DNA of 38,979 nt from Escherichia phage LM33_P1. The DNA is taken from sequence record NC_031937.1, one strand, 5' to 3'. This document shows, in pieces, positions 6,177 to 35,935 of this stretch. Below the pieces are notes generated by a model, which searched no databases, had not been told where the DNA came from, and was given only the letters and a program-made list of their open reading frames with translations. The stretch's first letter is position 1. Each line of letters begins with the position of its first letter. A program made the position numbers and the translations under genes.

Positions 6177-6215
6177 GACTCAAGGTCATGACTCAAAGTC
6201 GTGGCCTTCATGATT
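6177..6215 (+). promoter_or_regulatory. RNase III-type processing hairpin (AAGGTCA/TGGCCTT, G-U containing)
   Basis: Conserved box AGACTCAAGGTCAT...GTGGCCTTCATGATTA, also at 13110 and 35902. Confidence 0.5.
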
Positions 6216-6249
6216 AACCCTAAATAAACACTACTGGAGATTTAACCGT

Positions 6250-6429
6250 ATGTATCAGAACACTATCAACTTCGAGCGCATCCGTGAACGTCAGCAGACT
6301 GAAGGTTACATCCCTAAGGGCCGCAAGCTGAACAAGACTAAACGTGGAGGAGGTATCAAAGGTGCTTTCCGTAACGCTGAAGGTAAAGACTCTATGGTTA
6401 ACCAAGAGAAATACTTCGTAGGAGCATAA
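6250..6429 (+). CDS. 1.1: Gene 1.1-like small basic protein (59 aa)
   Basis: Similarity to T7 gp1.1 (..GRKLNKTKR..); position upstream of 1.2; below the ORF-track cutoff. Confidence 0.6.
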   Translation: MYQNTINFERIRERQQTEGYIPKGRKLNKTKRGGGIKGAFRNAEGKDSMVNQEKYFVGA

Positions 6430-6433
6430 CCAA

Positions 6434-6697
6434 ATGGGCAGACTTTATAGTGGCAACCTCAACGATTTCAAAGCAGCGTGTCACAGGCTTTATCAGTTAG
6501 ACTTCGCTGTCATATCTCAGGAGTTTCAAGACTATACGTCACGCCAAGAGTGTATGAAACTCAGGGTGGAGGACCGAGCTGGTAACATCTTCGCGCTTGA
6601 GACCTTCGCACACTACGATGAAGACGTGCTGTATAATACCGCAACCGACTACCTCAACGGTCTCGCTGACCATCTCGACACATGGAGCAAAGAATAA
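6434..6697 (+). CDS. 1.2: Gene 1.2 protein (host dGTPase inhibitor homolog)
   Basis: Strong similarity to T7 gp1.2 (MGRLYSGNL..FKAA....DEDVL). Confidence 0.85.
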   Translation: MGRLYSGNLNDFKAACHRLYQLDFAVISQEFQDYTSRQECMKLRVEDRAGNIFALETFAHYDEDVLYNTATDYLNGLADHLDTWSKE

Positions 6698-7785
6698 TGA
6701 CAACTATCAAAACTAACCCTCACCGCGCTGTAGATTACTCTGAGTCTGGAATTAAGAAGGCACTGGAAGCAGCCGGGTCTCTGGAAGCTGAAGTGAAGTA
6801 CGATGGTGTGCGCCTGAACCTCCTGGTCCTGCGTGAAGGTGAGACCTACTGGCTTAGCCGCGAGTCGAAACCTCTACCAGCCTTGGAGTGGATGAACTCT
6901 GAGTTAGGTAATGCGTGGACCCAAGCTGACTGGCGATGGTTCCTGCGTCAATCCGGCTACGAAGGTGTGGGCATGATGATTGATGGCGAGGTCATGGTCA
7001 AAGGTGTAGACTTCAACACCTCCTCAGGTCTCATCCGAACGAAGTGGCTCAAGCCTAACAACGAGGAGTTCGCTGAATACTATTCGCCGGCGACTGGTGG
7101 AAAGAAGCTCCCGTTCTGGGGATCCCGGTCACGACTTCAGGTTGTGGTCTACGGTGTCATCGACATGACAACCATTGCTGACCCGAAAGCCGAAGGTCCT
7201 ATCCATAGCGTCACACGCCTGAAGGCCGAAGCTATCGTCCCTCTCCTCCAGAAATACTTCCCGGAAATCGACTGGGTTCTGTCTGAGTCACACACGGTCT
7301 ATGACCTTGAGTCTCTCAACTCCCTGTACGAAGAGAAGCGTCTGGAAGGACACGAGGGTCTGGTAGTCAAGGACCCACTTGGTAAATACAAGCGCGGCAA
7401 GAAGTCAGGCATGTGGAAAATGAAGCCGGAGGACACCATTGATGGGACCGTGTGTGGACTCGTGTGGGGGACTCCTGGTAAGGCTAACGAAGGTAAGATC
7501 ATCGGCTTTGAGGTTCTACTGGAGGATGGCATGGTGGTCAACGCCTGCGGTCTGTCTGAAGAACAGAAGGACGGGTTTACGGCTAAGGTCAAGGAGGACA
7601 CGCTTGCTGCGGTTGGCATCTTTGCGCCGTACGGCATTGGTGGTAACGAACCTTGCTTCGATAACCCATACGAAGGCTGGCAGTGTGAAGTCCTCTTCAT
7701 GGAGAGGTTCCCTGATGGCTCCCTTCGTCACCCCAGCTTCAAGTGCTGGCGTGGAACCGAAGACAACCCAACGGTGAAGTCATGA
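6697..7785 (+). CDS. 1.3: ATP-dependent DNA ligase
   Basis: Similarity to T7 ligase including KYDGVR adenylation motif and C-terminal SLRHPSF..RGTEDNP; start taken at ATG overlapping the 1.2 stop (track ORF begins 6682). Confidence 0.9.
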   Translation: MTTIKTNPHRAVDYSESGIKKALEAAGSLEAEVKYDGVRLNLLVLREGETYWLSRESKPLPALEWMNSELGNAWTQADWRWFLRQSGYEGVGMMIDGEVMVKGVDFNTSSGLIRTKWLKPNNEEFAEYYSPATGGKKLPFWGSRSRLQVVVYGVIDMTTIADPKAEGPIHSVTRLKAEAIVPLLQKYFPEIDWVLSESHTVYDLESLNSLYEEKRLEGHEGLVVKDPLGKYKRGKKSGMWKMKPEDTIDGTVCGLVWGTPGKANEGKIIGFEVLLEDGMVVNACGLSEEQKDGFTAKVKEDTLAAVGIFAPYGIGGNEPCFDNPYEGWQCEVLFMERFPDGSLRHPSFKCWRGTEDNPTVKS

Positions 7786-7961
7786 GTACACAACTTTATA
7801 TCAACATAGCAAGTAGTCAACTCTACGCTGTGGTAAATGGCGAGCTGTGGTATCGTAAACTCAAGAAGTGGGCCAAGTCCTCCTACGATGAAGAGACAAT
7901 ATCAACCATGAGTCATCGCTACCGTAAGGCTGCTAAGGTGAACAACTTTAAGATGCGTTAA
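7782..7961 (+). CDS. Hypothetical small basic protein (59 aa)
   Basis: ATG overlapping ligase stop (ATGA); track ORF 7743..7961. Confidence 0.45.
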   Translation: MSTQLYINIASSQLYAVVNGELWYRKLKKWAKSSYDEETISTMSHRYRKAAKVNNFKMR

Positions 7962-7965
7962 CGTC

Positions 7966-7999
7966 AACCCAGTGGTCTTATGACTGCTGGGTTTCTTTG
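7966..7999 (+). terminator. Rho-independent terminator-like hairpin (AACCCAG/CTGGGTT) with U-tract; candidate early terminator TE
   Basis: 7-bp stem followed by TTTCTTTG, just upstream of a phage promoter. Confidence 0.5.
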
Positions 8000-8020
8000 C
8001 GTACGGGCCACCAGCTAGAC

Positions 8021-8043
8021 CCTAAGCTATCACTATAGGACAA
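8021..8043 (+). promoter_or_regulatory. Phage RNAP promoter (CCTAAGCTATCACTATAGGACAA)
   Basis: Consensus match. Confidence 0.7.
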
Positions 8044-8069
8044 CCCTAACCGACCAAAGGAGAAACCTT

Positions 8070-8324
8070 ATGTCTAAAAACTTAATGTTCAACCGATTTA
8101 CTCGAAGCTTCCACCTGTCGCATAGCCCATTCAGCTTCCATAAATCTAATCAACCATTACCCCGCTTTGGTAAGACAGTGGCTCTGTCTCCCACAGTTCA
8201 TGCGCTAGTCACCCGCAAGTCTATGCTGAAGGCTATGGATAAAGAACAAGTCGATGTACCTGTGGTCGTTACAAAATGGCCTCGCATTAAGCTGGCCCTT
8301 CTGGTAATTAAGGAAGTGTTTTGA
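8070..8324 (+). CDS. Gene 1.6-like protein
   Basis: C-terminal similarity to T7 gp1.6 (..RIKEVF) as recalled; RBS AAAGGAGAAA. Confidence 0.55.
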   Translation: MSKNLMFNRFTRSFHLSHSPFSFHKSNQPLPRFGKTVALSPTVHALVTRKSMLKAMDKEQVDVPVVVTKWPRIKLALLVIKEVF

Positions 8325-8662
8325 TGGCATATTGTGATAGCACCACATACTGTGAAGCATGTAATGGTGATGACCGCTTCCCACACGTTGGTAAACTTGT
8401 AGGTAACAAGCTGCAAGAAATTGATGGTGTACGCAAGCCATCCCACTATCAGGTCTTTGATGGCGTGGAATCCATTGAGATTATCGCACGGTCAATGACT
8501 GTGAGTGAGTTCCGTGGGTTCTGCATGGGTAACGTCCTGAAGTATCGACTCCGGGCTGGTAAGAAGTCAGAGCTGGCAACTATGGAGAAGGACCTGAACA
8601 AAGCAGCCTTCTATCAGGAGCTGTTCGACCTGCATAAAGGTAAGTGCTATGCTTCCGAGTGA
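8324..8662 (+). CDS. Gene 1.7-like protein (nucleotide kinase family, short form)
   Basis: C-terminal similarity to T7 gp1.7 (KPSHY..F...E.IE.IARSMTV..F.G.C.GN.LKYRLRAGKKSEL) as recalled; 113 aa versus about 196 in T7. Confidence 0.6.
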   Translation: MAYCDSTTYCEACNGDDRFPHVGKLVGNKLQEIDGVRKPSHYQVFDGVESIEIIARSMTVSEFRGFCMGNVLKYRLRAGKKSELATMEKDLNKAAFYQELFDLHKGKCYASE

Positions 8663-8672
8663 GTGGTGTGAA

Positions 8673-8744
8673 ATGATGTTCGAGAAGACAGGTAACACTG
8701 ACTACCTTGAATTGTATAACCAGTGGAAGGAGCGCGGTTTATGA
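8673..8744 (+). CDS. Possible mini-ORF (23 aa) at the gene 1.8 position
   Basis: ATG-initiated ORF overlapping the gp2 start; no strong RBS. Confidence 0.2.
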
Positions 8745-8899
8745 CTGAGGTTGAGAAGAAATACATCGTGGAGCTTGAGGGTCGCGTTCAGTCCTTCGAG
8801 GTTCCGTTGTACGCAAAGTCTCTTGAAGAGGCTACCCTGAAGTCCCAAGAGTATGAGGACGCTGGGTTTGTGGTCGGACGGATTCGCCCTGAGACCTAA
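8741..8899 (+). CDS. 2: Gp2-like inhibitor of host RNA polymerase (52 aa)
   Basis: Similarity to T7 Gp2 (..SFEVP.YA..L.EA......Y...GF.V.R.RP); below the ORF-track cutoff. Confidence 0.7.
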
Positions 8900-8917
8900 A
8901 CTATCACTGTAGGACAG
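8895..8917 (+). promoter_or_regulatory. Phage RNAP promoter variant (CTAAACTATCACTGTAGGACAG)
   Basis: Consensus match with TG at -3/-2. Confidence 0.6.
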
Positions 8918-8956
8918 ACGTCCAGTTAGTAACTTTAAATTAGGAGATTTACACCA

Positions 8957-9649
8957 ATGGCTAAAGAGCAACTGAAGACTTTCACCACTCCGGTAGCTGG
9001 TATCGTTGAGCCTTACGCATGGCTGAACAAAGCAGACACCAAGTTTAATGAACGTGGTGAGCATAAGGTTAACCTGACGTTCGACCTGAGCGACCCGAAG
9101 GTCCGTAAGATGATTGATGTCTTACAGAAGATTCACGACGATGCGTATGCGAAAGCACTCGCAGACCACGAGAAGAACCCACCTCAGGTTCAGCGTGGCA
9201 AGAAGCCTATTGAACCACGTGAAGGCGACATGCCGTGGATTGAGAATGGTGACGGTACTGTTACCCTTAAGTTTAAATGCTTTGCGTCTTACCTGAAAGA
9301 CGGCAAGTCCGAGCCTATCTTATTACGGTTCTACGACACCGATGCTAAACTCATCCGTGACGTCCCGAATATTAGCGCTGGCTCCAAACTGAAGGTCAAG
9401 TTTAAAGTCCTGCCGTTCAAGTGGAACGCTGCGACCGGTGCAAGCGTTAAGCTCCAGCTTGAGTCCTGCCTTCTTGTAGAACTGAAGGAGTGGAAAGGTG
9501 CTGGTGGTGATGGTGGCTGGGGTGATGATGAAGACCTTGGTACTGGCTACAAAGCGCCAACCGATGGTGACTTCGGGTCTGATGCCTTCGGTGACGATGG
9601 TTCCGAAGGTGGTGACGACTCCAGCTCTGGTGGCGATTACGACTTCTAA
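8957..9649 (+). CDS. 2.5: Single-stranded DNA-binding protein with acidic C-terminal tail ending in F
   Basis: Similarity to T7 gp2.5 (MAK.....EPYA., GDMP...NGDGT..FKFKC.AS, SKLKVK....P.KWN.A.GASVKLQLES..LVEL); D/E/G-rich tail ...GGDYDF. Confidence 0.9.
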   Translation: MAKEQLKTFTTPVAGIVEPYAWLNKADTKFNERGEHKVNLTFDLSDPKVRKMIDVLQKIHDDAYAKALADHEKNPPQVQRGKKPIEPREGDMPWIENGDGTVTLKFKCFASYLKDGKSEPILLRFYDTDAKLIRDVPNISAGSKLKVKFKVLPFKWNAATGASVKLQLESCLLVELKEWKGAGGDGGWGDDEDLGTGYKAPTDGDFGSDAFGDDGSEGGDDSSSGGDYDF

Positions 9650-10101
9650 TGGCCCAATGGTCTGCAAAACGGGGGCACTCTGTGGGTGCCTACCGCTCTG
9701 GACTTGAAGCCAAGAACCAGCAGTGGCTGGAACAGAACGGCGTCAAAGCGGAGTACGAAAGCCATTATATCAACTATGTGATTCCGGCTTCCGACCACAA
9801 GTACACACCAGATTTTATCCTTCCTAACGGTATCATCGTGGAGACCAAAGGTATCTTCGATAGTGATGACCGTAAGAAGCACCTTCTGGTACGAGAACAG
9901 CACCCAGAGTTAGACATCCGGTTCGTGTTCTCAAGTTCACGCTCCAAGTTATACAAAGGGTCTCCAACCACGTATGGCGCATGGTGCGAAAAGAACGGCT
10001 ATAAGTATGCCGATAAATTCATCCCGGTTGAGTGGCTTCGAGAGGCGACTGTACGTCTGCCTTCAGGTATACTCATCCCCAAGAAGAAAGGAGTTAAGTG
10101 A
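9649..10101 (+). CDS. 3: Endonuclease I (Holliday junction resolvase)
   Basis: Similarity to T7 gp3 (YTPDF.LPNGI.VETKG...SDDRKKHLL.REQHPELDIR.VFSSSR.KLYKGSPT.YG). Confidence 0.9.
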   Translation: MAQWSAKRGHSVGAYRSGLEAKNQQWLEQNGVKAEYESHYINYVIPASDHKYTPDFILPNGIIVETKGIFDSDDRKKHLLVREQHPELDIRFVFSSSRSKLYKGSPTTYGAWCEKNGYKYADKFIPVEWLREATVRLPSGILIPKKKGVK

Positions 10102-10592
10102 TGAGCAAGAAGTTTAAACTGTTAGTAGATGCGCATGGCTGGCCTAGTGGGACTATAGTTACCAAGTGTGAGAATGACCCCGTACCAGATTCAAGAATGA
10201 CCCTAGTTGAGTGCCAGATTCCAGGCGCATACAAACATGGGTCTAACGGCTGCAATACTCAGCCTGAGGGTATGTGGGGAGCATGGGTCCTTAATTGGAA
10301 ACTTGAGGAAATCAAGCCGGAAGAGAAACTCACTGGTGTCCAAACCACTCAAGTCCTGCCAGCTTCGAGCGTACCGCCTGTGACTTTGAAGCGTGAAGTC
10401 CTGACCATCGACAAGATTGGTGTAGGCCAGACGTTCATCGTCCATGGAAAGCCTGAAGAAGTTTACGTGAAGATTAGCAACTCACACGTCTTCAACCATA
10501 AGCATCTCCAGATGCACACCACGGACGCACAACGCTTCACCCAGCACCTGAATCTGGTTGTCGTAGAATTGGTGGTGTACAATGGTAAGTAA
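10101..10592 (+). CDS. Hypothetical protein (163 aa) between endonuclease I and amidase
   Basis: ORF with RBS AAAGGAG, ATG overlapping the gene 3 stop (TGATG); no T7 counterpart recognised. Confidence 0.6.
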   Translation: MSKKFKLLVDAHGWPSGTIVTKCENDPVPDSRMTLVECQIPGAYKHGSNGCNTQPEGMWGAWVLNWKLEEIKPEEKLTGVQTTQVLPASSVPPVTLKREVLTIDKIGVGQTFIVHGKPEEVYVKISNSHVFNHKHLQMHTTDAQRFTQHLNLVVVELVVYNGK

Positions 10593-11040
10593 GGTACAGT
10601 TCAATCCACGGTCCCGGACCGACGCTATCTTCGTACACTGTTCGGCTACCAAGCCAGAGATGGACATCGGGGTAGAGACCATCCGTATGTGGCACAAGCA
10701 GCAAGGCTGGCTGGACGTAGGCTACCACTTTATCATCAAGCGCGATGGCACTGTGGAAGAGGGACGCCCGGTCAATGTCGTAGGGTCACACGTTAAGGAC
10801 TGGAACTCACGGTCTGTAGGCGTCTGCCTTGTAGGTGGAATTGACGCTAAGGGCAAGTTTGAAGCTAACTTCACTCCGGCCCAGATGAACTCCCTGCGCA
10901 ACAAGCTGGCTGACCTGAAGGACTTGTATCCTCAGGCAGAAATCAAAGCACATCATGACGTAGCACCAAAGGCGTGTCCAAGTTTCGACTTGCAACGCTG
11001 GCTGTCTACCAATGAACTGGTCACTTCCGACCGAGGCTAA
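10582..11040 (+). CDS. 3.5: N-acetylmuramoyl-L-alanine amidase (T7 lysozyme, RNAP-binding)
   Basis: Strong similarity to T7 gp3.5 (DAIFVHCSATKP, WLDVGYHFIIKRDGTVE, CPSFDL..W....ELVTSDRG). Confidence 0.92.
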   Translation: MVSKVQFNPRSRTDAIFVHCSATKPEMDIGVETIRMWHKQQGWLDVGYHFIIKRDGTVEEGRPVNVVGSHVKDWNSRSVGVCLVGGIDAKGKFEANFTPAQMNSLRNKLADLKDLYPQAEIKAHHDVAPKACPSFDLQRWLSTNELVTSDRG

Positions 11041-11058
11041 ACTATCACCGTAGGGATG
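11036..11058 (+). promoter_or_regulatory. Phage RNAP promoter variant (CTAAACTATCACCGTAGGGATG), followed by 5' stem-loop 11053-11077
   Basis: Consensus match except CG at -4/-3; transcript would start with 10-bp hairpin GGGATGAGAC/GTCTTGTCCC. Confidence 0.55.
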
Positions 11059-11103
11059 AGACCACGAGTCTTGTCCCTTTGTTCGCATTTGAGATTAAGA
11101 AAT

Positions 11104-11182
11104 GTCTCCATAGCTCAAACGGTAGAGCGGCGGGTCGTGATGGCCTATTGCGATTAGGGTTCGAATCCCCGTGGAGACGCCA
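11104..11182 (+). tRNA. tRNA-like element (7-bp acceptor stem, canonical D-arm, T-loop GGTTCGAATCC, encoded CCA; anticodon arm non-canonical)
   Basis: GTCTCCA...TGGAGAC acceptor pairing, D-arm GCTC-AAACGGTA-GAGC, T-arm TAGGG-TTCGAAT-CCCCG, 3' GCCA; 76 nt plus CCA; no well-paired anticodon stem found by hand (candidate loops UCGUGAU or UUGCGAU). Confidence 0.5.
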
Positions 11183-11193
11183 CTAAGGAGTGA

Positions 11194-12897
<1,704 letters not shown>

Positions 12898-12939
12898 TCG
12901 GGACATCGCTGACTATAAGAATTTTACGGAGGACCGTTA

Positions 12940-13104
12940 GTGTTAAAGAAACTTAAAGCTCGCTACCATCGGTTCATGTACAAATGGTGGAGCGACGAAG
13001 CAACCTGCCTGTCGAACATTCTGGGAGACCAGCGGTTCAACTCTGAGGCATGGAAGAAAGCTAACCGGAAGTTCATGTATCACTTCTTGCGTACAGACTT
13101 CTAG
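12940..13104 (+). CDS. Possible small protein (54 aa, GTG start) in the gene 4.3/4.5 position
   Basis: GTG preceded by GGAGGA; basic/aromatic-rich; below the ORF-track cutoff. Confidence 0.3.
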   Translation: MLKKLKARYHRFMYKWWSDEATCLSNILGDQRFNSEAWKKANRKFMYHFLRTDF

Positions 13105-13109
13105 GTCTA

Positions 13110-13145
13110 GACTCAAGGTCATTCACATAGAGTGGCCTTTATGAT
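13110..13145 (+). promoter_or_regulatory. RNase III-type processing hairpin (AAGGTCA/TGGCCTT) upstream of gene 5
   Basis: Second copy of box AGACTCAAGGTCAT...GTGGCCTTTATGATTA. Confidence 0.5.
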
Positions 13146-13167
13146 TAGACTAAACGGAGGATTAACC

Positions 13168-15339
13168 ATGTTTGACCTTAAGAGTATCTGGGGTTCTGAC
13201 ATCGAGACCAACGGTCTCCTTGATACAGTCTCCCAGTTTCACTGTGGGGTCCTGATTAACGCCGAGTCGAATGAGACCCTTAAGTATGGGGTAGCTCCGA
13301 TGGTCGGTATCGTCGGTGGCTTCAAAGAGTATGTGCAGAAGGTGGAAGAGATTGCCGCATCACCTGATGGTATGCTGGTATTCCACAACGGTATCAACTA
13401 TGACGTCCCGGCTATTGACAAGCTGAAGCGTCTGTACTTCGGGAAACGCTTTAACTTCCCGAAACACAAGATGATTGATACCTTGGTGCTGGGTCGCTTG
13501 ATGTATCCCAACATTAAGTTCTCAGACATGGGCGCAGTGAAAGCTGGTCGTCTGCCACCTAAGATGATGGGACGCCAGTCTCTTGAGGCTTGGGGCTATC
13601 GTCTCGGTGAGATGAAAGGTGAGTACAAACACGATTACGTTGCCAAGTGCAAGGCTGAAGGTATCGAATATAAGGCTGGGGACGAATGGTTGTTCCCGTC
13701 TCAGGAGATGCTAGACTATAACGTTCAAGACGTTGTGGTCACACTGGCGTTGTTCAAGAAGTTCCTGACTGACAAGTATTACTTCCAGTCTGAACAGTTC
13801 GCTTTCGACCAGATTTATGCGTTGCGTCTGGAACATGATGCTGCGTGGACCTGTGCGAAGATGGAACGTAACGGCTATCCGATGAACACCGAGATGGTCG
13901 AAGGCTTATATCGTGAACTCACCGTCAAACGTGCAGAGCTGCTGGACAAGCTGCGTTCGACTTTCGGTAGCTGGTACGCACCAAAGGGCGGAAAGGAGTT
14001 CTTCAAGCACCCACGGACAGGCAAGGACCTTCCGAAGTATCCGAGAGTCGTGTATCCTAAGGTCGGTGGCATCTTTAAGAAGCCGAAGAACAAAGCTCAA
14101 CGCTTAGGTCTTGAACCCTGTGAACGCGATACGCGAGACACGATGGAGGGAGCACCATTCACGCCAATCACTTACGTTGAGTTTAATCCGGGAAGCGGAG
14201 ACCACTTAGCGAAAGTCTTGATGGAGCGTGGCTGGGAGCCTGTGGACTTCACTGACACCGGGAAACCTGTAGTCGATGACGAGACGTTGGAACACGTTAA
14301 GTTACCAGACGCAGAGGCTCAGGCTTGCGTAGAGCTGGTCCGTGAGTATCTGGTAGTCCAGAAGCGCATCGGTCAGGCGGCTGAAGGTAAGAACGCATGG
14401 TTGAAACTTGTAGGTCAAGACGGACGTATGCACGGTTCAATCAACCCATGCGGGGCAGTAACCGGACGTGCGACCCATAGTGCACCAAACATGGCTCAGG
14501 TACCTGCTAACGGTGCTCCGTATGGTGAGACTTGCCGTGGTGCTTTCGGTGCAGCGTGGAACAAGAAGGACGGCAAGCCAGACCCTTGGGTTCAAGTAGG
14601 CGTGGATGCTTCAGGTCTTGAGCTTCGTTGTCTGGGGAACCGAGCGGCACCGTTTGATGGTGGCGACTATGCTAAGACTGTGGTAGAAGGCGACATCCAC
14701 TGGGCCAACGCAGTCAACGCTGGGTTAGCACCTAACGTCCCACGCGACAAGTCGAGCCATGACCACGATGCTTTCCGTAATAACGCCAAGACGTTCATCT
14801 ATGCGTTCCTGTATGGCGCAGGGGCCGCTAAGATTGGACTGATAGTTGGTGGTGGTAAGAAGGAAGGTGCGGCCCTGATGAAGAAATTCATTGAGGGTAC
14901 ACCAGCTATCAAGGACCTCAGGGAAGCTGTGAGTAATACGTTAATCTCAGACTCTAAGTGGGTGGACGGAGAGAACATCGTTAAGTGGAAACGCCGTTGG
15001 CTGCGTGGACTTGATGGTCGCCGTATCCACATCCGGTCTCCACACTCAGCACTGAACGCATTACTTCAAGGTGATGGTGCGGTAGTCTGTAAGACTTGGT
15101 TCACTTGGCTGGAGCGTAACCTCGAAGCTAAGGGCTATGTTCACGGGTGGGATGGGGACTTTGCGATTATGGCATTTGTCCACGATGAAGTTCAGGTTGC
15201 TGCCCGCACCATGGAGATTGCTGAGGACATCGTTAAGGTTGCTCAGTCCACGATGCGCGAGGTGGGTGAGTTCTATCAGTTTAAATGCGTATTGGACACC
15301 GAGGGCAAGATAGGCCCTACGTGGAAAGAATGCCACTAA
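13168..15339 (+). CDS. 5: DNA polymerase (family A) with thioredoxin-binding loop
   Basis: Collinear similarity to T7 gp5 including KYPR...PKVGGIFKKPKNKAQR thioredoxin-binding segment; start taken at ATG after RBS AACGGAGG (track ORF begins 13132 inside the hairpin). Confidence 0.93.
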   Translation: MFDLKSIWGSDIETNGLLDTVSQFHCGVLINAESNETLKYGVAPMVGIVGGFKEYVQKVEEIAASPDGMLVFHNGINYDVPAIDKLKRLYFGKRFNFPKHKMIDTLVLGRLMYPNIKFSDMGAVKAGRLPPKMMGRQSLEAWGYRLGEMKGEYKHDYVAKCKAEGIEYKAGDEWLFPSQEMLDYNVQDVVVTLALFKKFLTDKYYFQSEQFAFDQIYALRLEHDAAWTCAKMERNGYPMNTEMVEGLYRELTVKRAELLDKLRSTFGSWYAPKGGKEFFKHPRTGKDLPKYPRVVYPKVGGIFKKPKNKAQRLGLEPCERDTRDTMEGAPFTPITYVEFNPGSGDHLAKVLMERGWEPVDFTDTGKPVVDDETLEHVKLPDAEAQACVELVREYLVVQKRIGQAAEGKNAWLKLVGQDGRMHGSINPCGAVTGRATHSAPNMAQVPANGAPYGETCRGAFGAAWNKKDGKPDPWVQVGVDASGLELRCLGNRAAPFDGGDYAKTVVEGDIHWANAVNAGLAPNVPRDKSSHDHDAFRNNAKTFIYAFLYGAGAAKIGLIVGGGKKEGAALMKKFIEGTPAIKDLREAVSNTLISDSKWVDGENIVKWKRRWLRGLDGRRIHIRSPHSALNALLQGDGAVVCKTWFTWLERNLEAKGYVHGWDGDFAIMAFVHDEVQVAARTMEIAEDIVKVAQSTMREVGEFYQFKCVLDTEGKIGPTWKECH

Positions 15340-15349
15340 GGAGGTGCAG

Positions 15350-15658: not shown

Positions 15659-15669
15659 GGAGAAAGCTA

Positions 15670-17112: not shown

Positions 17113-17163
17113 GTCTAACCGATAGTCATATCCTATCAATCCAATAGTCATCCATAGGTGAAA

Positions 17164-17186
17164 CACTAAACTATCACTATAGGGAC
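17164..17186 (+). promoter_or_regulatory. Phage RNAP promoter (CTAAACTATCACTATAGGGACT)
   Basis: Consensus match; position equivalent to T7 phi6.5. Confidence 0.75.
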
Positions 17187-17248
17187 TTTAGGACCTAAGA
17201 TATGACTATAAGATAGACTTTAGTCTTAACTTAAAGAGGAGATTCAAG

Positions 17249-18439: not shown

Positions 18440-20008
18440 ATGGCTGAACGTGAAGGGTTCGCTGCTGAAGGCGCTAAGTCAGTTTATGATAGATTGAAGA
18501 ACGGACGACAGCCTTACGAGACCCGCGCACAGAACTGTGCTGCTGTCACTATCCCGTCACTGTTTCCTAAGGAATCAGACAACTCGTCTACTGAATATAC
18601 CACTCCGTGGCAAGCTGTAGGTGCTCGCTGCTTGAACAACTTGGCTGCAAAGCTGATGTTGGCGTTATTCCCTCAGTCACCGTGGATGCGACTGACAGTC
18701 TCCGAATATGAGGCCAAGACCTTGAGTCAGGACTCAGAGGCTGCTGCTCGTGTTGACGAAGGGCTTGCTATGGTCGAGCGTGTGTTGATGGCCTACATGG
18801 AGACTAACAGTTTCCGTGTGCCATTGTTCGAAGCTCTGAAGCAGCTTATCGTCTCCGGTAACTGTCTGCTTTACATTCCAGAGCCTGAACAGGGTACTTA
18901 CAGTCCGATGCGGATGTACCGCTTAGTGTCTTACGTTGTTCAACGTGATGCGTTCGGTAACATCTTGCAGATTGTGACTCTCGACAAGGTAGCTTTCAGT
19001 GCTCTACCGGAAGACGTGAAGTCTCAACTCAATGCAGACGACTATGAGCCTGACACCGAGCTTGAAGTGTATACGCACATCTACCGTCAAGACGACGAGT
19101 ATCTACGCTACGAGGAAGTGGAAGGGATTGAGGTAGCAGGGACCGATGGTTCCTACCCGCTGACTGCATGTCCGTACATCCCGGTACGAATGGTTCGACT
19201 GGATGGTGAAGACTACGGTCGTTCTTACTGCGAGGAGTATCTGGGCGACCTTAACTCGCTGGAGACGATTACAGAAGCTATCACCAAAATGGCTAAGGTA
19301 GCCTCCAAGGTGGTGGGACTCGTTAACCCGAACGGTATCACGCAACCTCGACGTCTGAACAAGGCGGCTACAGGTGAGTTCGTGGCTGGTCGCGTTGAGG
19401 ACATCAACTTCCTGCAACTGACGAAAGGTCAGGACTTTACGATTGCCAAGTCGGTGGCTGACGCTATAGAGCAACGTTTAGGCTGGGCCTTCCTTCTTAA
19501 TAGTGCTGTTCAGCGTAATGCCGAGCGGGTCACTGCTGAAGAGATTCGTTATGTTGCTGGCGAACTGGAGGCGACCTTAGGTGGCGTGTACTCAGTACAA
19601 TCACAAGAGCTTCAGTTGCCTATCGTCCGTGTGCTGATGAACCAGCTTCAGTCTGCTGGCATGATTCCTGACCTTCCGAAAGAAGCGGTAGAGCCTACGG
19701 TCTCCACTGGTCTTGAAGCGTTAGGCCGTGGTCAAGACTTAGAGAAGCTGACTCAGGCAGTCAACATGATGACCGGGCTACAGCCTCTGGCTCAGGACCC
19801 AGACATTAACTTGCCGACCCTGAAGCTGCGACTGCTGAATGCCTTAGGCATTGACACCGCTGGTCTACTCCTTACGCAGGACGAGAAGATTCAGCGCATG
19901 GCTGAACAGTCGTCTCAACAGGCAGTAGTCCAAGGTGCTGGTGCTGCTGGTGCCAACATGGGCGCTGCTGTAGGTCAGGGAGCTGGTGAGGACATGGCTC
20001 AAGCCTAA
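18440..20008 (+). CDS. 8: Head-to-tail connector (portal) protein
   Basis: Collinear similarity to T7 gp8 (GAKSVY.RLKN.R.PYETRAQNCA..TIPSLFPK.SDN.ST.Y.TPWQAVGAR.LNNLA.KLMLALFP). Confidence 0.93.
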   Translation: MAEREGFAAEGAKSVYDRLKNGRQPYETRAQNCAAVTIPSLFPKESDNSSTEYTTPWQAVGARCLNNLAAKLMLALFPQSPWMRLTVSEYEAKTLSQDSEAAARVDEGLAMVERVLMAYMETNSFRVPLFEALKQLIVSGNCLLYIPEPEQGTYSPMRMYRLVSYVVQRDAFGNILQIVTLDKVAFSALPEDVKSQLNADDYEPDTELEVYTHIYRQDDEYLRYEEVEGIEVAGTDGSYPLTACPYIPVRMVRLDGEDYGRSYCEEYLGDLNSLETITEAITKMAKVASKVVGLVNPNGITQPRRLNKAATGEFVAGRVEDINFLQLTKGQDFTIAKSVADAIEQRLGWAFLLNSAVQRNAERVTAEEIRYVAGELEATLGGVYSVQSQELQLPIVRVLMNQLQSAGMIPDLPKEAVEPTVSTGLEALGRGQDLEKLTQAVNMMTGLQPLAQDPDINLPTLKLRLLNALGIDTAGLLLTQDEKIQRMAEQSSQQAVVQGAGAAGANMGAAVGQGAGEDMAQA

Positions 20009-25747: not shown

Positions 25748-25771
25748 CTTATTGAAGGGCCTATAGATTTA

Positions 25772-25794
25772 CCTTAACTATCACTATAGGGACT
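25772..25794 (+). promoter_or_regulatory. Phage RNAP promoter (CCTTAACTATCACTATAGGGACT)
   Basis: Consensus match; position equivalent to T7 phi13. Confidence 0.75.
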
Positions 25795-25823
25795 ATAGGC
25801 CCTTAAGGTTATAAGGAGACTTT

Positions 25824-26866: not shown

Positions 26867-26877
26867 GAGGAGGAATA

Positions 26878-29160: not shown

Positions 29161-29164
29161 CATA

Positions 29165-32100: not shown

Positions 32101-33052
32101 ACGTCAGGGCTTCCTGTCTGACATCGTGGAGCATAGCCTGACTGGTAGTAAGCGTAAGTTCGATGACCGCTGGCTGAAGACCGCTGGTATCTCTGACGAG
32201 CAGTGGAAGGGCATTAAGTCCCTAATCCGTGAGTCAGTGACTCGTGGTCCAGACGGGAAGTACACCATCAAGGATAAGAAGGCGTTCAGTCAGGACCCAA
32301 GGGCTATGGACCTCTGGCGTATGGGTGACACCATCGCTGACGAGACGTTACTCCGGCCTCATAAGCTGTCAAACATGGACGCCAAGGCTTATGGTCCTCT
32401 CGCTAAGACTGTCCTTCAGTTTAAGAACTTCGTCATCAAGTCTATCAATGGGAGAACCATGCGAACCTTCTATAACGCCACGAAGAACAACAGAGCGATT
32501 GACGCTGCACTGTCGACCGTGATGTCTATGGGTCTGGCTGGTATCTACTACATGGCTCAGGCGCATGTCAAGGCTTATGCTATGCAGGATGGTCGAGACC
32601 GTGACTACCTTAAGCAAGCTCTGGACCCAACGATGATTGGCTATGCGGCCCTGTCCCGTAGTTCACATCTTGGTGGCCCACTTGGGGTAGCTAACATTCT
32701 GGGTGGAATCGCTGGGTATGAGGACACTAAGATGCTCCGCTCGTCAATCCTTCCGCGCTCACCTACCGAGAAGACGGAGAAGCCAATCGCCTTTGGTGCT
32801 GCTTCCAGTGGTCCGGTAATGAATGTGGTCGGCAACTTCCTTGAGCAGGTCCCGGCTTTCGGCTATGCTGCTAACGTTGGTGCTACGGCTTACAACTTGG
32901 CGGGATACCTCAAGGCTGATACCCGTGTCAACGAGCGAGACTACATGACCGGGATGTATAACACGTTCCGTGAACTTGTACCGAATGACCCGATTACCCA
33001 GAAGTTGCTGCTTGGAACGTTTGAGGAGCAGGGCATCCACATCAAGGACTAA
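29165..33052 (+). CDS. 16: Internal virion protein D (ejection/core protein) with divergent N-terminal domain
   Basis: Collinear similarity to T7 gp16 over most of its length (DLVRSPTGMQSGASGK, ENPA.FG, YGISH.DQF..SS..EENI.GLVG.ENNSFLEARNLFDSD, RPHK.S, ALSRSS.LG.PL); start at ATG after AAGGAG (track ORF begins 29147). Confidence 0.9.
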   Translation: MATRGIRNNNPGNIRVSKDQWEGMTGDDGAFVTFDSPESGVRALGKNLLSYGRQGYDSIEKIINRWAPPNENDTKAYIDSVVAATGIPATQSLDLSDPDTLSSLAQAISFHETGSRYDPEVYQKGVARALNGISPKTPPVSANVFDALTEGLKAKPKVDLGENLPTAAGLNIEGQAPEAPNESFGEMFYKSTGETMQEREDRSTWFGFGSATEAEVKNSMVGVAIRAGQTEDSLDVIGDVFNPTRWNNHKWSREELDQIRNAGVLPQYYGVITGGSPQNLTELINLALENQKLDQEKAKAGIGAQLAAGVIGAGVDPLTYVPIAGQVGKGGKLVNKMFTVAAQSGALAGVSEMARTSVAGGDAHVAEAILGGALFGGGMTAIADGLGRALGRNTNEFAGPATRLEARETARNVDGQDLSRLPIQEGEQTFSHQGVKFADVPNEPGSVRLEDGSILIGENPLNPQTRKVFDEVIEPERAAAGVNLGGLTEIGLKLLRSENPEIRGVAADLVRSPTGMQSGASGKIGTTASDVFERLRAVDHRFYNDIDDAVTEALKDPYFQTAFWRDSGAFRQDIYQRVSMAIEDGSGNLKAELTPGELKVYDLLKNQFDAKREMMENPAMFGRPDAQSIFPGSRFKGTYVPHVYSNQMKELYIKELGSPEALQEAIKKSWLTSYASRPEVKKRVDEALLEADPTLTPEGLAAAVDKYANDKAYGISHTEQFERSSVMEENINGLVGLENNSFLEARNLFDSDMSIVLPNGQTFSVNNLREWDMDKIVPAYNRRVNGDIAIMAGTGKTTKDMKDLVETLMNKAGDDGKLKGEVSTLRDTLKILTGRARRDGADDAAFATVMRTMTDLSFFAKNAYMGVQNLTEIGGMLARGNVRAMLHGVPIFRDLAFRNKKVGASEIKDLHNVIFGKELDDSIRPSKQDVIDRLRSYSDLGRGTATALGTAKYYTGELAVRSPFTKVLNGTTNYLLDAGRQGFLSDIVEHSLTGSKRKFDDRWLKTAGISDEQWKGIKSLIRESVTRGPDGKYTIKDKKAFSQDPRAMDLWRMGDTIADETLLRPHKLSNMDAKAYGPLAKTVLQFKNFVIKSINGRTMRTFYNATKNNRAIDAALSTVMSMGLAGIYYMAQAHVKAYAMQDGRDRDYLKQALDPTMIGYAALSRSSHLGGPLGVANILGGIAGYEDTKMLRSSILPRSPTEKTEKPIAFGAASSGPVMNVVGNFLEQVPAFGYAANVGATAYNLAGYLKADTRVNERDYMTGMYNTFRELVPNDPITQKLLLGTFEEQGIHIKD

Positions 33053-33070
33053 ACTATCACTATAGGAAAC
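33048..33070 (+). promoter_or_regulatory. Phage RNAP promoter (CTAAACTATCACTATAGGAAAC)
   Basis: Consensus match; position equivalent to T7 phi17. Confidence 0.75.
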
Positions 33071-33116
33071 TGGAGGCGCTACCATAGGTCTCCGTTTAAA
33101 TCACAAAGGAGGCATA

Positions 33117-35297
33117 ATGTCCACGATTACACAATTCCCTTCAGGAAACACTCAGTACAGGATAGAGTTCGACTACCTAGCCAGAACGTTTGTTGTTGTT
33201 ACGCTGGTGAATAGCTCTAACCCTACCCTGAACCGTGTACTGGAAGTTGGTCGAGATTACCGATTCCTTAATCCAACGATGATTGAGATGTTGGCTGACC
33301 AATCAGGTTTCGACATCGTTCGTATTCACCGTCAGACTGGAACTGACTTAGTGGTAGACTTCAGGAATGGCTCAGTGTTGACAGCTAGTGACCTGACCAA
33401 TTCAGAGCTTCAGGCTATCCATATTGCAGAAGAAGGTCGAGACCAAACGGTTGACTTAGCGAAGGAATATGCCGATGCTGCTGGTAGCTCTGCTGGCAAC
33501 GCTAAGGATAGCGAGGACGAATCACGCCGAATCGCTGCGAGTATCAAGGCAGCTGGTAAAATTGGCTATATTACCCGTCGCTCCTTCGAGAAAGGCTTCA
33601 ACGTTACAACATGGAACGAGGTCCTGCTATGGGAAGAGGATGGTGATTATTACCGCTGGGATGGTACGCTTCCAAAGAACGTTCCCGCTGGTTCAACTCC
33701 TGAATCATCTGGTGGTATTGGGCTGAGTGCGTGGGTTAGTGTTGGTGATGCGTCACTTAGAGCAAACCTGGCTGATAGTGATGGCGCTAAATACATAGGC
33801 AGTGGAGAAAGGACATTACTTGAGCACAACAATGATGTTTTGCACTCAAAAGACTTTCCAACACTGCAGGCAGCTATAGATGCATCTTTGCAAAAAAATG
33901 ATCTACTGGTGTCTCCTGGCAATTATACTGAAAAAGTTACTATTGGAAACGCGCAGTTAAAAGGTGTTGGCGGGGCCACGGTACTAAAAACTCCGGCAGA
34001 CTTTACAAACACTGTTCAGGTTAATTTAGCTACACCTCATTGGCAATTCCGCCATAGTGGTGGTTTTGCTATAGATGGTTCCGGGACAACCGGGGCCGTA
34101 GGTATTAGTTTTGACCCGTCAGACCAATATTCCGGACGTCATAATTTTAGTGATGTATACATCCACAACATCAACAAGGCCATTCAGAAGCCTTCCGGGA
34201 ACATCGGCAATACTTGGAGAAATATTGGGATATCTACGTGTGATTGGGGGTATTACGCGATTAGTGGCTCAGAGATGCATTGCGGGGCCGATACCCTCTA
34301 CAATATCCACTTCGATGGCATCTCCACCTATGCAGTCTATCTAGACGGCACTGTCGATAATGGCGGGGGGGGCGCATGGTGGCTTAAAGACTCCATTATT
34401 GAGGCTTCCGGAGGTGGCGGGATATACTTAAAAAGTAAATCGGGCGACTGTCCTACATCTCCATGCGGGGTATCCAATATATGGATGGAAGCGATCGCAA
34501 CATCACCGGCTGTTCAGGTAGACGGCGTGGCGCAAAAACCGCGAGTTCTCAAGTTGGTAGACACAGCGATATTCTTTGCTGAGTATTCTTATCTCAACAA
34601 CATCGAGCTATCCAACTCCAACTTAGTAACTTATGGTTGCCGTTTTGACAACGCTGATGGCAATCAGGATATTGTCGTGGATGCACAAAGTACCATTGTA
34701 GCCCATGACGTGTATTTAAACGGCAGTTCTGGAAAGGACGTTATTGTGGAGTCCGTAGCATCGCAATCTGCAACGATAGCTGCCACAAACTTATCTCTGA
34801 GGGGCAACTTAACAAGAGGGAGAGTATTTAATACGCCGACAGGGAATAAATTAATGGCTATCACATTTGACTCAGGTAGCCATAATTTTTCTGGCAGCGG
34901 CACCGTTAACGGTTCGACTGTATCTGACGGACTTCACGCCGCTACATGTACCGAATTTTCATTCCCCGGAGCCGGTTTATATGAAATGGTAGCGACAAGA
35001 ACAACCATTACATCCGGTAGATGGTACGTGTGGGGAGTTAACTCACGCCTACAATCTGGCTCGGCGGATATTAGTATAACGTCAGGTATTACCATGGGTA
35101 GTGTTTACACAAAGCCGGGGGAGTGGATTAGCACTTTCGGTGTAGGAAAGGCATCTACCACTGGCACTGTAGCGCTATACGTTTCCACAGGAGGAGGTTC
35201 GGGAGCTACGGTCAGATTCAGTGACTTTTTCATCGCTGAGTTTACGACGCAAGCTCAGGCTTTAGCTTTCGCCAATTCAAGGATGTCGTTATCATAA
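33117..35297 (+). CDS. 17: Tail fibre/tailspike: T7 gp17-like N-terminal domain fused to beta-helix-type C-terminal receptor-binding/depolymerase-like module
   Basis: N-terminal roughly 150-220 aa resemble T7 gp17 (F.YLAR.FVVVTL......L....DYRF, H.AEE.RD); C-terminal portion is Gly/Ser/Thr-rich with repetitive beta-strand pattern and distinct AT-richer codon usage. Confidence 0.88.
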   Translation: MSTITQFPSGNTQYRIEFDYLARTFVVVTLVNSSNPTLNRVLEVGRDYRFLNPTMIEMLADQSGFDIVRIHRQTGTDLVVDFRNGSVLTASDLTNSELQAIHIAEEGRDQTVDLAKEYADAAGSSAGNAKDSEDESRRIAASIKAAGKIGYITRRSFEKGFNVTTWNEVLLWEEDGDYYRWDGTLPKNVPAGSTPESSGGIGLSAWVSVGDASLRANLADSDGAKYIGSGERTLLEHNNDVLHSKDFPTLQAAIDASLQKNDLLVSPGNYTEKVTIGNAQLKGVGGATVLKTPADFTNTVQVNLATPHWQFRHSGGFAIDGSGTTGAVGISFDPSDQYSGRHNFSDVYIHNINKAIQKPSGNIGNTWRNIGISTCDWGYYAISGSEMHCGADTLYNIHFDGISTYAVYLDGTVDNGGGGAWWLKDSIIEASGGGGIYLKSKSGDCPTSPCGVSNIWMEAIATSPAVQVDGVAQKPRVLKLVDTAIFFAEYSYLNNIELSNSNLVTYGCRFDNADGNQDIVVDAQSTIVAHDVYLNGSSGKDVIVESVASQSATIAATNLSLRGNLTRGRVFNTPTGNKLMAITFDSGSHNFSGSGTVNGSTVSDGLHAATCTEFSFPGAGLYEMVATRTTITSGRWYVWGVNSRLQSGSADISITSGITMGSVYTKPGEWISTFGVGKASTTGTVALYVSTGGGSGATVRFSDFFIAEFTTQAQALAFANSRMSLS

Positions 35298-35441
35298 AAA
35301 CAACCTCAGCCGAATCGGGTTATTTATCATCAGAACGGTATTGAATCATCGAAGGTTGTGGAGGTAGAGGCTAACTACACGTTGACCAACGTATGATAAC
35401 AACTTTGGGTCACGGACGACCCGCTTTAAACTGGAGGTTTT

Positions 35442-35636
35442 ATGATTGAGTTAGACTTCAAGAATGAGGTCCTCAAAGCCTCGCCTATCGTCGGGACCGC
35501 TGCGGCTGATGGTGCCAGTCGGTTCTTCTTTGGGCTAACGCTCAACGAATGGTTCTACGTCGCTGCTATCGCGTACACCGTGGTGCAGATTGGCGTCCTA
35601 ATTTACAAGACGATTAAGAGCGGAGGTAAGACATGA
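35442..35636 (+). CDS. 17.5: Holin (class II, T7 gp17.5-like)
   Basis: Similarity to T7 holin (..LDF.NE..KA.PIVGT..AD...R.FFGL.LNEWFYVAAIAYTVVQIG). Confidence 0.8.
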   Translation: MIELDFKNEVLKASPIVGTAAADGASRFFFGLTLNEWFYVAAIAYTVVQIGVLIYKTIKSGGKT

Positions 35637-35896
35637 CGCAGATGGACTTAGAGAAGTTCCTGTTAATGCTGGACACAGAACGTGCTAGACTAATGCTGCA
35701 AGACCTGCGGGATGACACTAAGCGTTCACCTCAGCTCTACAACGCCATTGAGAAACTGCTTGCTCGACACAACTTTGTGTTAAGCAAGGTGTCTGTGGAC
35801 GAGAAGACGCTGGCGGATATGGAGGCCTTGAACGAAGAGTACGATAAGGTGCTTTCAGCTACTGAGGATAATGACACCGGGTATGGTGTTCAATAA
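35633..35896 (+). CDS. 18: Terminase small subunit
   Basis: Similarity to T7 gp18 (..FL.MLDT..A..ML.DL.D...RSPQLYNAI.KLL.RH.F). Confidence 0.8.
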   Translation: MTQMDLEKFLLMLDTERARLMLQDLRDDTKRSPQLYNAIEKLLARHNFVLSKVSVDEKTLADMEALNEEYDKVLSATEDNDTGYGVQ

Positions 35897-35901
35897 GTGT
35901 T

Positions 35902-35935
35902 AGACTCAAGGTCATCGTCAGGTGGCCTTTATGGT
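35902..35935 (+). promoter_or_regulatory. RNase III-type processing hairpin (AAGGTCA/TGGCCTT) upstream of gene 18.5
   Basis: Third copy of box TAGACTCAAGGTCAT...GGTGGCCTTTATGGTTA; position matches T7 R18.5. Confidence 0.5.

Follow-up and report, generated by a model that had tools for sequence, protein, structure and literature searches.

Three distant sites in the genome of Escherichia phage LM33_P1 carry nearly the same hairpin, which raises the question of whether these are places where the host RNase III processes phage transcripts, or whether the repeat serves some other purpose. The window analysed is the whole genome (38,979 nt, NC_031937.1) of this phage, Kayfunavirus LM33P1, which is related to T7 and is of the K1F-like kind; the phage has been investigated for use in therapy. 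The record is without any annotation and RNase III sites are also unannotated in the RefSeq record of K1F. Across the whole window the pattern AGACTCAAGGTCAT-N(4-20)-GTGGCCTTYATGRTTA has exactly three exact matches, all on the + strand, at 6176-6216, 13109-13147, and 35902-35937, with 0 matches in 100 dinucleotide-preserving shuffles. The three copies named in the original prediction do therefore exist, although its coordinates were 1-2 nt off. It had also described fixed G-U wobbles in a 7 bp stem. That stem, AAGGUCA/UGGCCUU, has only one U.G pair; the description is true of an 8 bp stem, since the next pair (the U/G of ...CAU / GUG...) is a second U.G.

At each site the repeat itself forms only the upper stem of an element of some 50 nt with two helices, in which a lower stem of 8-9 bp is followed by an asymmetric internal loop (ACUC / YAUGR) and then by the upper stem. 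The full elements are located at 6169-6222, 13102-13153, and 35895-35943. All copies, like the T7 sites, adopt this two-helix fold (z-scores -2.9 to -4.2). It is very probable that the host RNase III processes the phage's polycistronic transcripts at these three hairpins and that they are orthologues of R1.1, R4.7, and R18.5 of T7 and T3. The basis for this is sequence, fold, homology, synteny, and covariation, from which we infer the binding, the position of cleavage, and the stabilising effect. With Rfam 15 at gathering thresholds there was no match in the whole window except tRNA, and at E<=10 nothing meaningful was found around the three sites; Rfam seems to have no curated family for RNase III sites of the T7 type.

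The R1.1-type site (6169..6222, + strand; MFE -20.2 kcal/mol, z -4.2, 66.6 bits) has a lower stem of 6169-6177/6214-6222, an internal loop of ACUC (6178-6181) and CAUGA (6209-6213), an upper stem of 6182-6192/6198-6208, and an apical loop, UCAAA, at 6193-6197. [quoted passage not shown] Downstream, ORF 6250-6429 is the gp1.1 homologue (BLASTP against T7 gp1.1, E 7e-6) and is followed by gp1.2. T7 R1.1 likewise follows closely on a phi1.1-type promoter and precedes genes 1.1/1.2, and it is built in the same way, its lower and upper stems being separated by an ACUC / YAUGAUU internal loop. The base of its upper stem, AAGGUCAU/GUGGCCUU, recurs unchanged in all three LM33P1 copies. The apical loops are different, being UCAAA, ACAUA, and GUCA in LM33P1 and GCAA in T7 R1.1, and the lower stems are unlike in sequence, yet they retain their pairing. 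Where T7 has a second promoter downstream, phi1.1B, LM33P1 has only a degenerate copy at 6214-6238.

The R4.7-type site (13102..13153, + strand; z -4.15, 69.4 bits) is directly before gene 5. Its lower stem is 13102-13110/13145-13153, its internal loop is ACUC (13111-13114) and UAUGA (13140-13144), its upper stem is 13115-13124/13130-13139, and its apical loop is ACAUA, with cleavage predicted at U13142^G13143. The upper stem is identical to that of T7 R1.1, such that the whole 10 bp, AAGGUCAUUC/GAGUGGCCUU, and the 3' loop UAUGAUU are common to the two. T3 and T7 have a hairpin of this family too, placed after the gene 4.x cluster and before gene 5. T3 R4.7 is directly before gene 5, as in LM33P1 (stem_loop 12970-13018, gene 5 at 13043), whereas in T7, 285P, and kpssk3 gene 4.7 is between the site and gene 5. 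The top of the upper stem is GUCGCC/GGUGGC in T7 R4.7, compared to GUCAUUC/GAGUGGC in LM33P1.

The position of this hairpin has consequences for the start of gene 5, the DNA polymerase gene. The start of the longest ORF, GTG 13132, falls within the 3' arm, and the ATG that comes next (13141-13143) supplies the AUG in the conserved YAU^G loop, in which cleavage is predicted. ATG 13168 is preceded, at a distance of 6 nt, by the Shine-Dalgarno sequence GGAGGA, and its equivalent is the annotated gene 5 start in K1F and PRF-SP5. The 12 extra residues of the longest ORF have no counterpart in any relative compared. The suggestion that gene 5 begins at ATG 13168 (13168..15339, + strand) is therefore borne out by the hairpin overlap, the Shine-Dalgarno sequence, and the annotation of the relatives.

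The R18.5-type site (35895..35943, + strand; 68.1 bits) is between gene 18, encoding the small terminase (35633-35896, stop 35894-35896), and gene 18.5, encoding an Rz-like spanin that is 51% identical to T7 gp18.5 (35993-36442, ATG 35993). It has a lower stem of 35896-35903/35935-35942, an internal loop of ACUC (35904-35907) and UAUGG (35930-35934), an upper stem of 35908-35916/35921-35929, a GUCA tetraloop, and a predicted cleavage at U35932^G35933. As in T7 and T3, the site separates gene 18 from the Rz-like gene 18.5, its lower stem begins at the gene 18 stop, and its 3' loop is the UAUGG variant. This variant is found in the R18.5 sites of LM33P1, K1F, T7, T3, MmP1, and kpssk3 and is absent from those of PRF-SP5 and fPS-21. 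T7 R18.5 has AAGGCCA/UGGUCUU where LM33P1 has AAGGUCA/UGGCCUU, the wobble having shifted by one pair. The LM33P1 upper stem is short, with 9 bp and the tetraloop, while other kayfunaviruses have a longer UUACUAUAUGUAG top. Eight bp of it, AGGUCAUC/GGUGGCCU, match the upper stem of T7 R1 exactly. The R18.5 hairpin upstream of gene 18.5 is kept in 11 out of 11 kayfunavirus loci from IMG/VR.

The family extends beyond these sites. While the three copies stand, the restriction of the family to three sites in the original prediction does not, as it missed the hairpin at 2125-2177 and three divergent copies in the early region. The fourth close member, likewise in the early region (2125..2177, + strand, 59.7 bits), has an upper stem of GAGGUCAUC/GGUGGCCUC, in which a G-C pair takes the place of the closing A-U pair, and an internal loop of ACGA / AAAGA; this hairpin is conserved in K1F (1764-1824) and PRF-SP5 (1209-1270). 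The early-type relative at 1765..1823 (+ strand, 38.2 bits) has an upper stem of CAGGUCAUC/GGUGGCCUG, with a different lower stem and bulge and a 3' arm of GGCCUGACUGAUAGUCAUUAAC. Another is at the R0.3 position, before the ocr-like gene of 1121-1624 (1035..1095, + strand, 34.8 bits), and a weak, marginal one is before ORF 783-1037 (712..778, + strand, 15.3 bits, E 0.12). The early T7 and T3 sites R0.3, R0.5, and R1 have the upper-stem core AGGUCAU...GUGGCCU in common with the LM33P1 family. T7 R1 is AGGTCATCTGCGGGTGGCCT, and the LM33P1 hairpins at 1765-1823 and 1035-1095 are of the same kind. Sites of this early type differ from the three main copies in the lower stem, the bulge geometry, and the 3' arm (GGCCUGACUGAUAGUCA...).

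A covariance model of 59 positions, called R1, was built from four LM33P1 and three T7 hairpins; it scores the three main copies at 66-69 bits. In T3, which was outside the training set, the model recovers 8 out of 10 annotated RNase III stem-loops, and there is no match at E<0.1 in the T3 genome beyond these 8. Stem-loops for R1.1, R4.7, and R18.5 are annotated as 'RNase III recognition site' at the corresponding positions in the T3 RefSeq record and are found by the model. In T7 it finds five further hairpins, at what we take to be the positions of R0.5, R6.5, R0.3, R1, and R1.3. The assignment of the three LM33P1 copies to the T7 R1.1, R4.7, and R18.5 positions, as originally proposed, is upheld by a column-for-column alignment of the hairpins, which are nearly identical to those sites, and by matching gene neighbourhoods. 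Whole annotated genomes from other genera were gathered by a portal-protein search, a search with gp18.5 having given close relatives only. The three syntenic positions, the first following gene 1/phi1.1, the second preceding gene 4.7 or 5, and the third separating gene 18 from gene 18.5, are also kept in K1F, PRF-SP5, T7, T3, 285P, kpssk3, MmP1, fPS-21, and Mysterion. Pseudomonas phage phiIBB-PF7A has no model match at E<0.1, so the hairpin family is not universal in the Studiervirinae.

The model has 36 matches at E<=1e-8, every one of them on the transcribed strand; they come from 10 genomes that represent 8 genera of the Studiervirinae. Covariation across relatives had been put forward as a check on the original prediction, and here pairing is indeed conserved: 95.3% of pair cells are paired in the 36 sequences (95.5% in the initial alignment), with compensatory changes on both sides in 13 of the 19 pairs. 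None of 500 shuffles reach these pairing and compensatory values, and slid registers are only 28-49% paired. When the orthologues of each site were aligned independently with MAFFT, RNAalifold predicted the same structure, with 6-8 compensatory pairs per site.

These results bear on whether the repeats function as DNA, as repeats for recombination or module exchange, components of a replication origin, or sites for DNA-binding proteins. The T7 primary origin is at phi1.1A/B, and the R1.1 copy, flanked by a promoter on one side and a degenerate promoter copy on the other, is in a region that contains the primary origin in both T7 and T3; the apical sequence UUACUAUAUGUAG also recurs at different sites in different genera. 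The covariation, however, preserves pairing rather than sequence. The conserved U.G/G.U wobbles become A.C mismatches on the other strand, where scores are at most 17 bits, compared to 47-70 bits on the transcribed strand, so what has been conserved is neither a symmetric DNA cruciform nor a palindromic protein site. A primary role at the level of DNA is accordingly very improbable. Another long shot is that the RNase III sites, near-identical copies of about 40 nt that recur with little change between positions and across genera, might double as short homology 'linkers', which would explain the identical apical sequences (e.g. UUACUAUAUGUAG) at different sites across genera. If true, they would serve for gene conversion within a genome and for module exchange between co-infecting T7-like phages. 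Identity is 0.748 between paralogues within a genome and 0.737 between orthologues across genera, over a background of 0.701. The paralogues being no more alike than the cross-genus orthologues, gene conversion is not strongly indicated, and concerted evolution gives no clear signal. Separately, an exact antisense copy of the 14 nt 5' arm in the ligase gene (7301-7314, - strand) was considered as a partner for long-range or trans pairing. It is matched at 13/14 nt in PRF-SP5 and 11/14 in K1F and is absent from others, and was rejected as chance because it is not conserved.

Being G+C-containing hairpins in intergenic positions, the three copies could also be transcription terminators or pause sites, for either the host or the phage RNA polymerase. 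There is, however, no U tract after any copy, the tails being CAUGAUUAACCC, UAUGAUUAGACU, and UAUGGUUAACAC, and an intrinsic (rho-independent) terminator is rejected for all three on this ground. The hairpins at 6169-6222 and 13102-13153 are not among the terminator-like sites in a scan of 1-14000, a range that ends before the third copy. The essential genes 5 and 19 are directly downstream, without a promoter between hairpin and gene. Termination or pausing is the least probable of the functions considered here.

The features expected of RNase III substrates are present in the upper stem. The proximal and distal boxes have a functional role for E. coli RNase III, and distal-box substitutions in a minimal substrate cut reactivity more than 5-fold (PMC1540722). 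In all three copies the proximal box is A-U, A-U, G-C, G-C next to the loop, and distal-box position 2 is U.G, both as in T7 R1.1. Only the gene 5 copy has the canonical U-A as its first distal-box pair; the R1.1 copy has G-C there and the R18.5 copy has C-G. Natural T7 sites likewise depart from the canonical pair. Dunn and Studier reportedly gave, in 1983, T7 cleavage coordinates of 5887, 13892, and 36856, which fit the YAU^G motif. R4.7 and R18.5 are described as sites of strong cleavage in T7 (bioRxiv 10.1101/106799). A literature search found no cleavage experiments on LM33P1 or on any other kayfunavirus, the K1F and phiYeO3-12 genome papers being outside its coverage.

Variants of R1.1 that bind RNase III and yet resist cleavage do exist (PMC1540722). 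The hairpins could be elements of RNA stability or translation that need no cleavage, acting as barriers to 3' exonucleases, as sites that RNase III binds and leaves uncut, or as structures that sequester ribosome-binding sites. Two of these stable hairpins come right after stop codons (TAG 13102-13104 and TAA 35894-35896), and in the MFE fold of 13093-13163 the sequence CUUCU (13098-13102) pairs with GGAGG (13156-13160) of the gene 5 Shine-Dalgarno. This pairing is weak, however, with 2 G-C, 1 A-U, and 2 G.U pairs. The catalytic antideterminant, a G-C beside the scissile bond, is absent, the pairs nearest the loop being A-U in all three copies, and the internal loop and both boxes match T7 sites that are cleaved. 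Cleavage-free function is considered improbable; roles in stability or translation can also coexist with cleavage and do not compete with it as explanations.

Processing by RNase III would proceed from the + sense RNA, in which the lower stem, the 5' ACUC / 3' YAUGR loop, and an upper stem of 9-11 bp carrying the T7 R1.1 proximal-box and distal-box determinants are predicted to form. E. coli RNase III would bind this helix of roughly two turns and, because of the internal loop, would cut one strand only, after the U of YAU^G. The upstream mRNA would be left with a stable 3' hairpin blocking 3'-5' exonucleases, and the downstream mRNA (genes 1.1/1.2, gene 5, or genes 18.5-19) would begin about 25-60 nt before the start codon. 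T7 is able to grow without RNase III (PMC6938266), therefore the contribution of the sites to fitness may be small.

The presence of these sites in LM33P1 is real but ordinary, and changes nothing in what is known of RNA processing in T7-like phages. Its main value is for annotation, the gene 5 start being fixed at ATG 13168. The hairpins flag 'longest ORF' starts that fall inside them, here and apparently in relatives, and the sites predict the 5' and 3' ends of mature mRNAs. The model, which picked up 8 of 10 annotated T3 sites and made no false match in T3, could be used to annotate such sites across the Studiervirinae.

The pattern AGACTCAAGGTCAT-N(4-20)-GTGGCCTTYATGRTTA has exactly three matches in the window, at 6176-6216, 13109-13147 and 35902-35937, all on the + strand, and none in 100 dinucleotide-preserving shuffles. 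The three hairpins of the original prediction therefore exist, at coordinates within 1–2 nt of those first proposed. Their AAGGUCA/UGGCCUU stem is of 7 bp, as had been described, with one U.G wobble inside it and a second U.G in the adjoining pair. When the flanks are included in the fold, each copy forms the upper stem of a larger two-helix element on the + strand: R1.1-type at 6169-6222 (MFE z -4.2 against shuffles), R4.7-type, before gene 5, at 13102-13153 (z -4.15) and R18.5-type at 35895-35943 (z -2.9). The lower stem, of 8–9 bp, varies in sequence by copy with its pairing always kept. The internal loop is asymmetric in all three (5' ACUC; 3' CAUGA, UAUGA or UAUGG), the upper stem is 9–11 bp and the apical loop 4–5 nt. 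The apical part of the R1.1 hairpin (6189-6202, UGACUCAAAGUCGU) resembles the family's own 5' arm, and the long apical insert of the Mysterion gene 5 site (14303-14389) contains AAACUCAAGG, which suggests nested partial duplications.

LM33P1 is a K1F-like Kayfunavirus within the Studiervirinae, a relative of T7, with all large ORFs on the + strand. The phage-promoter consensus CTAAACTATCACTATAGG, present in 11 copies (repeat family D1), marks its class II/III transcription units. Immediately 5' of the R1.1-type copy is a promoter (6149-6173) with its +1 G (6171) inside the lower stem; downstream are a gp1.1 homologue (6250-6429; KGRKLNKTKR motif, BLASTP E 7e-6 against T7 gp1.1) and gp1.2, the dGTPase inhibitor (6434-6697). 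The other two elements start at the stop codon of the preceding gene, one before the DNA polymerase gene (gene 5, 13168-15339) and one between the small terminase gene (gene 18, 35633-35896) and the gene for the Rz-like spanin gp18.5 (35993-36442; 51% identity to T7 gp18.5). A reading of the hairpins as terminators is the least probable of the alternatives: a U tract follows none of them, the two copies within the scanned range 1-14000 were not reported as terminator-like (the third is outside this range), and the essential genes downstream have no promoter of their own.

The T7 sequences before gene 1.1 (...AACTCAAGGTCATTCGCAAGAGTGGCCTTTATGATTG...), gene 4.7 (...CCTCAAGGTCGCCAAAGTGGTGGCCTTCATGAAT...) and gene 18.5 (...ACTCAAGGCCACTACAGATAGTGGTCTTTATGGAT...) line up column for column with their LM33P1 counterparts at 6169-6222, 13102-13153 and 35895-35943. 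The upper stem and 3' loop strand of T7 R1.1 are exactly those of the LM33P1 gene 5 copy. In LM33P1 R18.5 the upper stem, though short, matches that of T7 R1. Ten stem-loops carry the label 'RNase III recognition site' in the T3 RefSeq record, among them R1.1, R4.7 and R18.5 (35038-35088). T3 R4.7 (12970-13018) is directly before gene 5 (13043), as in LM33P1, which also mirrors the T3 arrangement of phi1.1 (5984-6006) and R1.1 (6003-6053). The T7 alignment, T3 annotation and matching flanking genes bear out the proposed equation with T7 R1.1, R4.7 and R18.5. The T7 cleavage coordinates reported by Dunn & Studier (1983), 5887, 13892 and 36856, all coincide with the U of YAU^G in these T7 sequences, which is internally consistent. 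A degenerate promoter copy (80%) at 6214-6238 (+) overlaps the 3' arm of the R1.1 lower stem, and TTAACCCTAAA is present at both 6149 and 6214. This copy appears to be a decayed equivalent of T7 phi1.1B, the T7 order phi1.1A - R1.1 - phi1.1B being mirrored by promoter, hairpin and degenerate promoter.

A covariance model of the two-helix structure, R1 (not the T7 site of that name), was built from four LM33P1 and three T7 hairpins. Further T7 hairpins found with it, at 1425-1484, 18499-18577, 850-906, 3098-3154 and 6421-6445, are presumably R0.5, R6.5, R0.3, R1 and R1.3, respectively. T3 contributed no sequence to the model, and its 8 matches at E<0.1 are 8 of the 10 annotated RNase III stem-loops; at this threshold R3.8 and R13 are missed and nothing is matched elsewhere in T3. 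The model thus detects the RNase III-site hairpin class specifically.

Ten genomes from eight genera were searched: Kayfunavirus LM33P1, K1F and PRF-SP5, Teseptimavirus T7, Teetrevirus T3, Berlinvirus 285P, Przondovirus kpssk3, Aarhusvirus Mysterion, Minipunavirus MmP1 and Helsettvirus fPS-21. All 36 matches at E<=1e-8 are on the transcribed strand. The gene 5-proximal site is found in 10/10 genomes, R18.5 in 9/10 and R1.1 in 7/10; Pseudomonas phage phiIBB-PF7A has no match at E<0.1. In IMG/VR, the hairpin is kept ~45-105 nt upstream of gp18.5 in all 11 kayfunavirus-like loci with this gene. In the alignment fitted to the model, 95.3% of pair cells hold a standard pair and both sides have changed in 13 of 19 pairs, values reached by 0/500 shuffles; slid registers give only 28-49% pairing. 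Since this alignment leans towards the model, RNAalifold was also run on plain MAFFT orthologue alignments per site, and again gave both helices; the compensatory pairs numbered 6, 8 and 7. The conservation and covariation anticipated for relatives are thus present. Most sequences keep the two U.G wobbles (31/36 and 27/36), and replacement of the first by C-G is accompanied by a neighbouring G-C to G.U change in R18.5 of T7, MmP1 and 285P and R1 of fPS-21. Because of the wobbles the fold is strand-specific, and the minus strand scores no more than 17 bits, which argues for an RNA element and not a DNA palindrome. That these are DNA-level repeats or origin components is extremely unlikely in light of the strand-specific wobbles, the covariation, and the finding that paralogues show no extra similarity (0.748 within a genome versus 0.737 for cross-genus orthologues; background 0.701).

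In T7, both R4.7 and R18.5 count as strong cleavage sites (bioRxiv 10.1101/106799). Internal loops limit RNase III cleavage to a single phosphodiester, leaving a 3' hairpin that guards against 3'-5' exonucleases; the R1.1 upper stem by itself is a minimal substrate, with proximal and distal boxes as positive determinants, U.G stringently needed at distal-box position 2, and the tetraloop sequence immaterial (PMC1540722). The proximal-box pairs and distal-box U.G of this substrate are also present in all three LM33P1 copies, from which single-strand cleavage after the U of YAU^G is predicted, at 6211/6212, 13142/13143 and 35932/35933. The first distal-box pair is canonical in the gene 5 copy only. 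Upstream mRNAs would end in a hairpin and downstream mRNAs would begin with short leaders. By homology, we infer RNase III binding, cuts at these positions and a stabilising effect in LM33P1. T7 growth is possible without RNase III (PMC6938266).

The longest gene 5 ORF starts at GTG 13132, within the upper stem's 3' arm. The ATG that follows, at 13141-13143, supplies the AUG in the cleavage loop, and the predicted cut would fall within it. The downstream ATG at 13168, favoured originally, is upheld as the start: GGAGGA is 6 nt upstream, K1F and PRF-SP5 are annotated from it, and the 12 extra residues of the longest ORF align with nothing in eight relatives. CUUCU at 13098-13102 pairs weakly with the gene 5 Shine-Dalgarno sequence in the MFE fold. 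Such pairing and processing are not mutually exclusive, and non-cleaving stability or translation elements are very unlikely. In Klebsiella phage kpssk3 the annotated gp07 start (CDS 6025-6234) is inside the R1.1-type hairpin (5982-6038), the same 'longest ORF' problem.

The count of three was too low, as looser searches and the covariance model find more copies. A fourth close copy is at 2125-2177 (59.7 bits), with G-C instead of A-U closing the upper stem and an ACGA / AAAGA loop. Divergent early-type hairpins at 1765-1823 (38.2 bits), 1035-1095 (34.8 bits) and 712-778 (15.3 bits) have in common the 3' arm GGCCUGACUGAUAGUCAYUAAC (repeat family D8), and are probably the 'first family' described previously. 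Within the DNA ligase gene (7301-7314, minus strand) is a stretch exactly antisense to the 14-nt 5' arm AGACTCAAGGTCAT of the three original copies. It is not conserved (K1F 11/14, PRF-SP5 13/14, absent in other genera) and is probably due to chance. The promoter before gene 13 lies between the two arms of a perfect 12-bp inverted repeat, AAGGGCCTATAG ... CTATAGGCCCTT (25756-25803, +). The repeat has no model match on the + strand and resembles the T3 arrangement, in which R13 overlaps promoter phi13; it may be an RNase III site of different appearance. In T7 (18499-18579) and T3 (17132-17211) the whole phi6.5 promoter sits in the apical loop of the R6.5 hairpin; around the LM33P1 phi6.5-type promoter (17160-17184) there is no model match.

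In the gap that separates gene 3.5 (amidase) from gene 4 (primase/helicase) is a tRNA-like gene (11104-11182, +), scoring 36.7 bits against Rfam tRNA (gathering score 29) and called tRNA-Thr (CGU) by ARAGORN. A tRNA is unusual in a T7-like phage. Of 176 matching phage records, only 33 contain the full 156-nt gap, and one record, PQ411323.1, annotates it as tRNA-Thr. In Dickeya phage Mysterion (11680-12231, annotated as tRNA CCA-adding enzyme) and phiIBB-PF7A (11209-11772), this lysozyme-primase slot holds a nucleotidyltransferase. The RNA polymerase gene is interrupted by an in-frame TGA (4890-4892), giving ORFs 2925-4892 and 4917-5606 in the same frame. Compared with K1F and PRF-SP5, 19 nt (TCGCAGACCAAGTTTACGA) within 4885-4925 (+) are replaced by a copy of adjacent downstream sequence (GAGGACATCGTGATGCCAG), with length preserved. 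An assembly or consensus artefact seems more likely here than a viable genotype.

The LM33P1 hairpins are covered by no Rfam family and are without annotation in the K1F RefSeq and LM33P1 records. In the literature searched, nothing was found on kayfunavirus RNase III sites. The corresponding T7 sites have been known since the early 1980s. The LM33P1 hairpins are plain orthologues of these sites, which are annotated in T3, and matter little beyond annotation.
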